In this document: positions 32,460 to 34,747 of the stretch, in pieces
Layout of the letters: each line of letters begins with the position of its first letter
Numbering within the stretch: position 1 is the stretch's first letter
Assembly (NCBI GenBank): GCA_947625185.1
Contig: CANQNJ010000004.1
Span: 1 to 61,458 of the forward strand
Length of the DNA: 61,458 nt
Origin: an uncultured Clostridia bacterium
GTDB lineage: Bacteria; Bacillota; Clostridia; Christensenellales; CAG-314
Direction: 5' to 3'
Notes under the pieces: model-generated
Databases searched by the model: none
What the model was told of the DNA's origin: nothing
What the model saw: only the letters and a program-made list of their open reading frames with translations
Program-made: the position numbers and the translations under genes

Positions 32460-32705
32460 ATGAATTACAAAACTCAGGGCGTATGTTCGCGCGAAATACA
32501 ATTTGACGTGGAGGACGGCAAAGTAACCAACGTTCACTACGTCGGCGGTTGCAACGGCAATACTCAGGGCGTTGCGGCGCTTGTCGAGGGTATGGAAATA
32601 CACGAGGCGATCCGCCGTCTCAAAGGTATCAAATGCGGCTTCAAGGGGACTTCTTGCCCCGATCAGCTTGCCATTGCATTGGAGAGTTATCTCGCTTCCC
32701 ACTGA
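32460..32705 (+). CDS. TIGR03905-type TSCPD domain protein
   Basis: GVCS, GGCNGN, GIKCG, TSCPDQLA. Confidence 0.9.
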   Translation: MNYKTQGVCSREIQFDVEDGKVTNVHYVGGCNGNTQGVAALVEGMEIHEAIRRLKGIKCGFKGTSCPDQLAIALESYLASH

Positions 32706-32736
32706 TCTCGCGGCAGCACGGCGTCCGTCGCCGCAC

Positions 32737-32765
32737 AAAAAAAAAGCGCGTTTTTTACGCGTTTT
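32737..32765. terminator. Bidirectional terminator-like hairpin
   Basis: A9-GCGCGT-ttttt-ACGCGTTTT. Confidence 0.55.
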
Positions 32766-32777
32766 CAGTCAAAAAAT

Positions 32778-32981
32778 AATGTACACAGAATATGCTAATC
32801 TGTGTACATTTCTGCTATTATTATAAGTCGATTTCCTCGATATGTCAACAAATAGATAGAAATTTTTTGCAATAATTTTGTTTTACTTGTCTCGTAATTG
32901 TCTCGCACGGCGGTTGCGAGGCTTTTTTTATGTCGAAACGGCGAGAAATAAGTCCATAGATTAGCATATTCTATGTAATTT
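32778..32981. promoter_or_regulatory. Candidate invertible promoter segment flanked by inverted recombination-like sites
   Basis: Sites 32778-32810 and 32949-32981 share AGAATATGCTAATCT in inverted orientation; TTGACA-17-TATAAT on minus strand at 32848-32820. Confidence 0.7.
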
Positions 32982-33063
32982 TGTCGCAAAAGCGGCTCAA
33001 CAAGACATTTCCGCCGATCATCCCAGCGGCATGTATAAAACTATTTATAAGGAGAAGCACAAA

Positions 33064-33504
33064 ATGTTGAAAATCAAAAGTAAAAAGGGCTTTACGCTTG
33101 CCGAGTTGCTGATCGTCGTTGCGATCATCGCAGTACTTGTTGCAATCGCAGTACCCGTATTCGTCAGCGCTCTTGACAACGCCAAGGAGGGCGTTTTCAA
33201 TGCGAATGTCCGCTCCCTCAAAGGTCTTGCCGTTACGGAGATTCTCACGCACCAAAACAAGCAAGAGACGATTTTGGGCGAAGGTCAAGATTGCTGGGTT
33301 GCAAAAGGATATTGGGATAGCGATGGTACATTGCACCTTACAAGTATAAGTGCCGGTACCAAAAGCACAGACGAGTCGAATGTTACTACGTTTGAAGCCT
33401 ATAAAAAGTTTAAGAAATTCGGCACGGGTACGGAAGTAATTACTTTGATAGTTACAAAAGCGGACGTTAGTACTGTTAAGTACACAGATCCTACGGCAGA
33501 ATAG
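33064..33504 (+). CDS. Type IV pilin (prepilin N-terminal cleavage/methylation domain)
   Basis: KKG|FTLAELLIVVAIIAVLVAIAVPVF class III signal peptide; AAGGAG RBS. Confidence 0.92.
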   Translation: MLKIKSKKGFTLAELLIVVAIIAVLVAIAVPVFVSALDNAKEGVFNANVRSLKGLAVTEILTHQNKQETILGEGQDCWVAKGYWDSDGTLHLTSISAGTKSTDESNVTTFEAYKKFKKFGTGTEVITLIVTKADVSTVKYTDPTAE

Positions 33505-33782
33505 GCTTATTTCCAACTAAATTTCAACTTGGAAAAATTATTTTAAGTTTAGGTTTGCAGACATAATTTTTCTTTGACGGATACCTTTCCTGCGCTGGTG
33601 AGATACGCTTTGAAGCGTTGTCCGAGCGGTGACAACCGCAAGTATTGAGTTGCAGGGGGACCGTCATCAATATCAATTGCTCCGCGGCATAGCAAGGGTG
33701 TGTCGCGAGAAGCATATTCGTACTTATAGGGATGTACGGTACGGAACCTGCGGGGCGCTCGTTTGAGTGCCCCGCTTATTTT

Positions 33783-34670
33783 TCGCTCGGGTGTTCGGTG
33801 CAAAAAGGAAGTCGCTCGTGCGGTCGCGCTCAAAAAGGCTTCACTTCGCGCACGGTGTGCGCTCGTTGCAGATTATTTTGAGTCGCGACGCACTCGCTCG
33901 TGGTGGAACCCACCGTTCCACGCCCCGACCACCCGCCCCTGTCCGCAGGGGCAATGTTGATTTCTGTATATACAACCGTCCCCGACAGTCGAAAGCGTCA
34001 GCGAGACTTTCGGGGAAGGGGGACCGCGCTATGCGCGGTGGAAGAGGGATAACAGGAAGAAAGTGAAGTTTGCACTACGTGCAAGTGAAGTTGCTGCGCA
34101 GTGAAGTTTCGGCTAACGCCGAAGTGAAGTTTGCCGCTGTGCGGCAAGTTGCGGCGGGGCATTAGTTAAAGTAGCTTATTTCTTAATAATGCTTATTTCA
34201 AAGTAATTTAATTTTCGCTTATAAAGGTGTTGTTTTGTTAAAAGCGTAAAGTTAAGAAAGATTTGTTTCAAATATCCCTCTATCGTCGCCCTGCGGGCGC
34301 CACTTTCCCCGTAACGGCTTGCCCGTGACGGGGAAAGTTTTGTACAGGGACAAAACTTATAACTGTAACAAAAAGGCTCTCCTTGATGAGCAAGGAGAGC
34401 TGGCACCCGTAAGGGTGACTGAAAGGTTTGAAGTCTCAATTTAATTCCGACCTCAACTTTGCGCTCTGCGCAAAACTTCACATTTGCAACTGTAACAAAT
34501 CGTTTCTCCGCGGACAGGGGTGGGCGGTCGGGGACCTTGTAACACTCGGAGCGAGGGTATTCCAACGCAAAATAATCTGCAACGAGGGCGTAGCCCGAAG
34601 CGAAGCCTTTTTGCGTGGAATACCCTATGCGACTTACTTCACTTGCCGCCTTGCGGCAAACTTCACCTTC
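33783..34670. repeat. ~900-bp mosaic of dispersed hairpin repeat modules
   Basis: Contains family C copies (33811-33899 minus, 34549-34633 plus), a 4-unit GTGAAGT array (34063-34147), a GGCTC..GAGCTG..GACTGA module and CCCCGT modules. Confidence 0.85.
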
Positions 34671-34747
34671 TCTCTCCTCTTGCCCCAAAGGGGCAAAATA
34701 TTTTTATCCTGTTTACAAACTTCGGACAATGTGCTAAAATTATCGTT

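Follow-up and report, generated by a model that had tools for sequence, protein, structure and literature searches.

The 61,458-nucleotide stretch of DNA analyzed here (the window) is contig C4 of G000, the 1.73-megabase (Mb) source genome, which is in 96 contigs and belongs to an uncultured Clostridia bacterium. The window carries a gene for a prepilin-type protein on the plus strand (33064..33504). Upstream of its ribosome-binding site (RBS) lie two 33-base-pair (bp) palindromes, sites 1 and 2, whose sequences have mutually inverted 9-bp cores and which enclose a promoter that points away from the gene. We interpret the stretch from 32778 to 32981 as a tyrosine-recombinase inverton captured in the OFF state, one of five switches with the same arms in this genome, which turns the pilin gene on and off; we put the probability of this interpretation at roughly 0.8.

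Site 1, the distal recombination site (32778..32810), has 12-bp perfect inverted arms around the core ATATGCTAA (32790-32798), and its 27-bp centre has no mismatches to the arm consensus GTACAYAGA-N9-TCTRTGTAC. Site 2, the proximal recombination site (32949..32981), has less perfect arms, with 2 mismatches to the consensus in its 27-bp centre. Its core, TTAGCATAT (32961-32969), is the reverse complement of the site 1 core. An earlier note on this DNA had described the perfect arms, the asymmetric core and its reversal in site 2, and that description agrees base for base. A repeat search returned the two sites as an inverted repeat of 26 nucleotides (nt), 88% complementary, with the copies 144 nt apart, and the central 15 bp common to both (the core and 3 bp on each side) form a perfect inverted repeat. 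The same search returned the palindrome inside site 1 as 15+15 nt, 93% matched with one mismatch, with 3 nt between the halves. The palindrome thus runs into the nominal core, and the truly asymmetric part consists of a few central bases, fewer than 9 bp. The 15-mer AGAATATGCTAATCT occurs twice in the window, once on each strand. With up to 2 mismatches allowed, 0.14 occurrences are expected, and two or more occurrences were found in 0 of 100 shuffles. There is no further exact copy across the 1.73-Mb genome. The shuffles and the uniqueness of the 15-mer in the genome rule out a chance origin of the paired sites. Among 293 fetched loci the exact 15-mer occurs only in copies of the window itself. 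Palindromic arms, an asymmetric centre that is inverted between the partners and a central sequence common to both make up the simple core-site architecture of tyrosine recombinases (lox/FRT/dif-like), and the assignment of the sites to this architecture in the earlier note is borne out.

The layout of the segment between the sites (32811..32948) is read directly, and its predicted behaviour follows that of homologous loci found flipped. It contains a sigma-70-type promoter, TTGACA-17-TATAAT, on the minus strand (32848->32820), which matches the consensus at 12/12 positions and faces site 1, away from the pilin. This is the OFF orientation. In a consensus scan, the plus strand from site 2 to the pilin gene gave no sigma-70-type promoter. 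Beyond site 1, between the switch and an upstream gene for a TSCPD-domain protein, is a terminator hairpin (32737..32765) with a minus-strand stem at 32761-32747 followed by a T run. The outward promoter and this terminator had both been called in the earlier note and both stand. A second intrinsic terminator, absent from that note, lies inside the segment on the plus (pilin) strand (32889..32929), with a 14-pair stem at 32889-32922 and a T run; the same element is found at the same place in two other switches of the genome, on contigs C7 and C26. Both sites are non-coding and lie upstream of the RBS, so that an inversion of coding segments of the shufflon type is rejected. An Rfam search of 32500-33300, with E values up to 1, matched no family, and a riboswitch or other known RNA in the leader is ruled out accordingly.

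The pilin most likely starts at the ATG at 33064, behind the RBS sequence AGGAG (33050..33054, plus strand, 9 nt ahead of the ATG, read from the sequence), which gives a product of 146 amino acids (aa) and not the 157-aa open reading frame (ORF) that starts at 33031. The product has a 9-residue leader followed by the G/FTLAEL cleavage-methylation motif. It matches Pfam N_methyl PF07963 (E 7.5e-8, 32.1 bits, cut-off 21.2) and NCBIfam IV_pilin_GFxxxE (TIGR02532; E 6.4e-8, 32.1 bits, cut-off 16.3).

A search of the whole genome with the arm pattern GTACAYAGA-N9-TCTRTGTAC found four loci beyond the one on C4, on contigs C7, C26, C9 and C21, which makes five in total. All five have a common order: distal site, promoter facing the distal site, terminator on the target strand, proximal site, RBS and prepilin gene. 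On C7 and C26 the site pairs, with mutually inverted cores, precede small pilins of 142 and 131 aa. On C9 and C21 they precede giant prepilin-type proteins, encoded by ORFs of 1484 and 1160 aa (G000:C9:31409-35860 and G000:C21:18376-21855, ends approximate). In the first ~380 residues of these proteins N_methyl is the only Pfam motif, and they may be modular pilins with adhesin domains. The cores differ among C4, C7/C26, C9 and C21, with C7 and C26 sharing one core. A motif scan found eight prepilin-type ORFs in the genome, five of them behind switches. The type IV pilus machinery (two T2SSE ATPases, T2SSF and the prepilin peptidase, Peptidase_A24) is confined to contig C41, and the same scan found no prepilin-type ORF on that contig. 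The C4 pilin had been called an orphan; it does lie away from the pilus machinery, and in other respects it is not an orphan.

Several further features of the sister loci were observed. A small prepilin-type gene lies some kilobases past each giant gene (C9:38179 and C21:22814). A stretch of ~330 bp, comprising the switch and the first ~35 pilin codons, is near-identical between C7:34945-35343 and C26:12836-13234, and the pilin bodies and outer flanks of the two loci differ; this suggests that the switch cassette was recently duplicated or gene-converted. The 16-bp perfect palindrome AAAAATCATGATTTTT, or a close variant, is found immediately ahead of the RBS at many small pilin genes under switch control (G000:C7:35060-35080 and G000:C26:12950-12970; also L064, L112 and L118 from the collection scans described below). 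It is not found upstream of the window's own pilin. This palindrome could be an operator or leader structure that forms a second layer of control.

Inversion of this class of sites was observed in public assemblies. Scans of a genome and a metagenome collection with the arm pattern gave at least 117 and 91 stretches, which by their record titles are mostly rabbit-gut Clostridia metagenome-assembled genomes (MAGs) and mouse-gut MAGs labelled Christensenella. All counts from these scans, here and below, are among the matches listed. Across the two scans there are 98 neighbouring site pairs, defined by their arms alone. The cores match in inverted orientation at 8/9 positions or more in 92 of these pairs, 68 of them perfectly, and the paired sites include 42 different cores. 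The between-locus control gave such a match in 921/5000 comparisons. Thirteen loci are doubly assembled, that is, present in independent assemblies with both flanks more than 85% identical. The segment is reverse-complemented in three of the thirteen; in these flipped pairs identity is 1.00, 1.00 and 0.98 in opposite orientation vs 0.56-0.65 in the same orientation. At two of them (L085/L182 and L101/L257) a single-base marker in the inner arm has moved to the other site, with the cores and outer arms in place, which locates the crossover within the central 9 bp. An assembler artefact behind the flipped pairs is unlikely, since the repeats are presumably shorter than the usual final k-mers and reads and the marker bases make them imperfect. 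The inversion that the earlier note had expected of such sites is in this way substantiated for the class. Under a rule that combines promoter and ORF, 120 non-redundant inverted-core pairs comprise 70 OFF, 5 ON and 45 unclassifiable loci. Among the 5 ON loci are those of a 150-aa pilin (L118) and of a giant prepilin-type protein (L116), both from rabbit-gut MAGs, in which the promoter adjoins the proximal site and the terminator is turned over. L118 is ON with 2 mismatches in one arm.

These data also bear on a reading without recombination, in which the palindromes would serve as operators for a regulator or form hairpins in RNA, and a small RNA of ~75 nt, containing the site 1 hairpin and the terminator, would arise from the outward promoter. 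The assembled orientation would indeed give a short transcript with two hairpins, and all five G000 loci share that orientation. Such a reading fails to explain why cores match in inverted orientation in 92/98 pairs with 42 cores, why exact reverse-complemented segments occur between conserved flanks, or why tyrosine recombinase genes abut the sites, and the Rfam search of 32500-33300 gives it no family. For the site class it is largely refuted by the flipped loci, and for the C4 locus we consider it highly improbable.

The genome has seven profile matches to Phage_integrase and two to Resolvase. None of the nine is on contig C4, in keeping with the statement in the earlier note that the window encodes no recombinase. 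That note had proposed a trans-acting recombinase that serves several dispersed pilins, and the proposal gains from the four additional same-arm switches, two of which are directly downstream of tyrosine recombinase genes. On C9 and C21 the first site lies at most ~70 bp past the stop codon of such a gene, encoding 307 and 303 aa, respectively. The two proteins are paralogues with 70% identity. Both match Phage_integrase PF00589 (94 bits, cut-off 27.1, E 1e-26), the tyrosine recombinase motifs TGLRIGE, HALRHTF, LGH and RYAH are visible in them, and they consist of a SAM-like N-domain and a catalytic domain, with no extra N-terminal arm-binding domain. They score 20-27 bits against the FimB/FimE models NF007371/NF007370, below the cut-offs of 221-222, at best 83 and 70 bits against the Xer equivalogs (XerA cut-off 220, XerC cut-off 335), and reach no integron-family cut-off. 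The closest solved relative of the C21 recombinase is an 'Int protein' (PDB 6en0/6emy/6emz; E 5e-18, residues 38-292). The alignment includes the conserved box with the HALRHTF motif as well as the region of the C-terminal tyrosine. This Int protein, which we take to be a conjugative-transposon integrase, differs from the C21 enzyme in being a mobile-element integrase and not an invertase, and the similarity is low.

The adjacency of recombinase and site recurs at G018:C42 and G004:C3, G018 being a sister species. Co-occurrence was assessed in 47 genomes of the genus with a threshold of at least 63% identity to the C21 enzyme. Six genomes (G000, G018, G022, G065, G004 and G019) encode such a recombinase, and all six hold sites, those of G019 with 3-4 mismatches. 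The other 41 genomes have no sites, apart from two that carry one and the same unpaired 27-mer with 2 mismatches. Downstream of the genes for more distant paralogues, 47-55% identical, the 9-N9-9 palindromes have different arms, so that, judged by sequence comparison, enzyme and site arms appear to diverge together. G000 itself has a second switch family with arms of the GTTCATCTA-N9-TAGATGAAC type (G000:C2:14558-14733 and G000:C58:7616-7790), in which each switch lies beside its own recombinase, with 47-49% identity to that of C21. On C2 the switch is situated between its recombinase and a gene for an 883-aa lipoprotein; on C58 the contig stops 60 bp beyond the second site. A strict genome-wide filter for inverted-core palindrome pairs was uninformative, since it missed the known loci as well, their proximal sites being too imperfect.

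The C9/C21 pair is probably the invertase of the C4 switch, as its sequence and site associations suggest. A different enzyme, one of the five other tyrosine recombinases or the two serine recombinases, might flip the switch instead; the genome has nine recombinase matches in all, and the C4 locus is linked to the C9/C21 enzymes by sequence comparison. In the genome, same-arm sites directly follow the C9 and C21 genes only, whereas the C2 and C58 paralogues are followed by arms of the GTTCATCTA type, and within the genus the sites track recombinases with at least 63% identity to the C21 enzyme. A serine recombinase is also at odds with an odd-length palindrome with a centre of several bp, since hix-type sites have a 2-bp centre. 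A serine invertase system of the Hin/Gin type is rejected on this ground and because the Resolvase matches (C21:120-554 and C3:62226-62672) adjoin none of the five switches. We regard flipping by an enzyme other than the C9/C21 pair as improbable.

A number of observations weigh against the inverton interpretation of the C4 locus or limit the evidence for it. All five G000 switches are OFF in the assembly. In Logan contigs of four runs from three studies (X1 record 3, X5 record 9, X6 record 17 and X7 record 27) the C4 switch is spanned in the OFF orientation only, and neither a flipped form nor its joints were found in the contigs of these runs; contigs drop minority variants, so that this OFF-only result is weak evidence. 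The boundary between two contigs of run X7 falls at 32771-32778, right beside site 1. Both sites are crossed unbroken by the contig that follows, for which reason this junction is rejected as a sign of mixed orientation. The orthologous switch of G018, 78% identical, is also OFF. The comparison of orientation across strains that the earlier note had suggested therefore gave no flipped C4 form, only OFF in four contig sets and in G018. Site 2 could be a poorer substrate, given its two arm mismatches. The sharing of one core by C7 and C26 indicates that core individuality is not a rule, and in G071, a mouse-gut MAG, dozens of sites share two or three cores among them. One core per locus is rejected as a strict rule on account of these cases and of G018, which re-uses one. 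The ON/OFF calls combine a consensus promoter score with a simple ORF rule that left 45/120 pairs unclassed. When the segments of L118 and L116 were aligned with those of OFF loci, 11/16 comparisons were better in opposite orientation, a modest excess. The link of the C9/C21 enzymes to the sites consists of adjacency and co-occurrence, which are correlations.

Some of these observations are also those expected of a decayed or locked switch, a descendant of an inverton that is fixed in the OFF state, for example through the arm mismatches of site 2, with the pilin silent or otherwise expressed. Both the exclusive OFF orientation in the four contig sets and the G018 orthologue and the two mismatches in the 27-bp centre of site 2 fit this alternative. 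The 15-bp centre, however, is still a perfect inverted repeat, and the pilin ORF, the RBS and the 12/12 promoter are intact. Arms that are comparably imperfect occur at ON loci, such as L118, and OFF is the usual assembled state of the class (70/75 classified pairs). In the G018 orthologue the central base of the core is altered in both sites together, as a requirement for matching cores predicts, and this joint change argues for continued constraint. A locked switch is accordingly unlikely, and we infer flipping of the C4 segment from its membership in a class in which inversion is observed.

These data suggest a mechanism for the C4 inverton. A tyrosine recombinase encoded elsewhere would attach to the four arms of 9-12 bp each, bring the two sites together and carry out strand exchange within the 9-bp cores. 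Because the cores are mutually inverted, the ~170 bp between them (about 32794 to 32965) would flip. Crossover would fall inside 32790-32798 and 32961-32969, and the inner arms and half-cores would travel with the segment. In the OFF state the promoter is predicted to fire through site 1 into the terminator at 32738-32761 and give a transcript of ~75 nt, and the terminator inside the segment would shield the pilin from read-through from the TSCPD gene. In the ON state, positions computed from the core centres would put the promoter on the plus strand at about 32911-32939, ~10 bp short of site 2, with transcription predicted to start near 32946. The resulting pilin messenger RNA would have a 5' leader of ~118 nt in which site 2 would form a hairpin at the 5' end. 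Enzymes of this family, acting on the same arms, would also serve the other four switches, of two small pilins and two giant prepilin-type proteins, so that the pilus machine encoded on C41 could be supplied with alternative filament subunits through independent ON/OFF switches. Since the cores differ among four of the five loci, each inversion should stay local.

A broader proposal, which we make tentatively and rate a little below an even chance, is that a whole type IV pilus is assembled from phase-variable parts. The three small pilins and the two giant ones would all stand behind independent invertons served by one recombinase pair, with cores that act like heterospecific lox sites. In relatives the same system would have grown to ~30 switches within 1.8 Mb, which control paralogous large surface proteins. 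The genome has a single type IV pilus machine, and every candidate pilin for it appears to be under inverton control. Judged by its targets, the family may subject type IV pilus subunits and adhesin-like giant pilins to wholesale phase variation.

The C4 locus is of a known kind, a tyrosine-recombinase inverton of which one enzyme serves several loci. In Escherichia coli, fimS is an invertible promoter before a pilus subunit gene, and the tyrosine invertases FimB and FimE are encoded beside the switch. The pilus under fimS control is of the chaperone-usher type, and the element has repeats of 9 bp and depends on accessory proteins. Like it, the C9 and C21 loci combine a switch with an adjoining recombinase gene. 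They differ in the type of pilus, three of the five switches here are without an adjacent recombinase, and the C9/C21 recombinases are not members of the FimB/FimE family, as they fall below the cut-offs of the NCBIfam 'tyrosine-type DNA invertase' models. In the Cre/loxP and Flp/FRT systems the asymmetric spacer determines direction, and two sites recombine only if their spacers match and do not cross-react if they differ. The G000 sites are similar in that all loci have the arms in common, and the two sites of a locus have matching cores, which in most cases are not those of another locus. The short recombinases (303-307 aa), with core-binding and catalytic domains only, are also like those of the Cre/Flp-type simple sites. 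In contrast to the 13-8-13 organization of loxP and FRT, the arms here are 9-12 bp and the centre is at most 9 bp, and the role is chromosomal gene regulation and not plasmid or phage maintenance.

Moraxella Piv and the shufflon of plasmids R64 and TP114 with Rci diversify type IV pilus subunits or tip adhesins by DNA inversion; a paper on TP114 is PMC9045228. These systems swap coding segments of one pilin gene, whereas in G000 separate whole genes would be switched through their promoters. The Bacteroides master invertase Mpi is a serine recombinase. As described in PMC10403206 and PMC4747536, many promoters of surface structures in Bacteroides are flipped independently, which yields combinatorial surface states in a gut commensal. 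Bacteroides belongs to another phylum, its targets are polysaccharides and outer-membrane proteins, and the enzyme is of another type.

In Clostridioides difficile, site-specific recombination reversibly inverts several short regulatory segments (flgB, cwpV, cmrRST and pdcB), and RecV is the recombinase of the flagellar switch, as given in PMC7446863, PMC8890394, PMC9286219 and PMC8844915. The flgB control involves Rho after initiation (PMC7446863). The resemblance to RecV is that both systems are from Clostridia and that one enzyme or pair would act in trans on loci without their own recombinase; it concerns the switch logic and not the sequence or the repeats of RecV. The targets named in the abstracts of these papers include no type IV pilin, and in contrast to flgB a plain promoter would flip here.

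Invertible promoters are a known route to surface variation in gut bacteria. The original survey with PhaseFinder is reportedly that of Jiang et al., in Science in 2019. Searches of a paper library, through listings, abstracts and term hits, turned up no account of type IV pilins under inverton control in Firmicutes or in bacteria like Christensenella; large inverton surveys may include loci of this kind in their supplementary tables. Term hits in PMC11892184 and PMC11602134 likewise did not link invertons with Christensenella-type bacteria or with type IV pilins of Firmicutes. The C4 locus adds a recombinase/site family defined by sequence in an uncultured lineage (rabbit-gut Clostridia and mouse-gut Christensenella-labelled MAGs). 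Its recognisable 27-bp sites allow switches to be found by pattern alone. If confirmed, the system would explain how such bacteria vary adhesion or escape phage and immunity, would show in nature how spacers can insulate recombination sites from one another and would provide compact orthogonal recombinase/site pairs.

G071, the 1.8-Mb mouse-gut MAG mentioned above, was reached via L097/L085. It has 61 sites with at most 1 mismatch, corresponding to ~30 switches. Among them, most use one of two or three cores and lie ahead of paralogous large membrane-anchored proteins. Several of its contigs (C9, C13 and C14) start 8-28 bp ahead of a site, a pattern that would be expected if variable switches cause breaks in assemblies.

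Around the C4 switch, the upstream TSCPD-domain gene (32460-32705) is conserved across the genus. The pilin body (33206-33540) has no contig cover in runs X5, X6 and X7, and the switch and the N-terminus of the pilin are covered there with 95-100% likeness; the missing cover beside a covered switch indicates that the strains differ in the C-terminal pilin domain behind this switch. A search for transfer RNA genes in 33500-34700 found none. The pilin is followed by ~900 bp of non-coding DNA (33775-34670) with short dispersed repeats that have 10-39 copies in the genome, and over these repeats the summed metagenome contig depth is very high, up to ~1280. Hairpin modules rich in 'GTGAAGTT', like those at 33775-34670, also flank the C7 and C26 switches.

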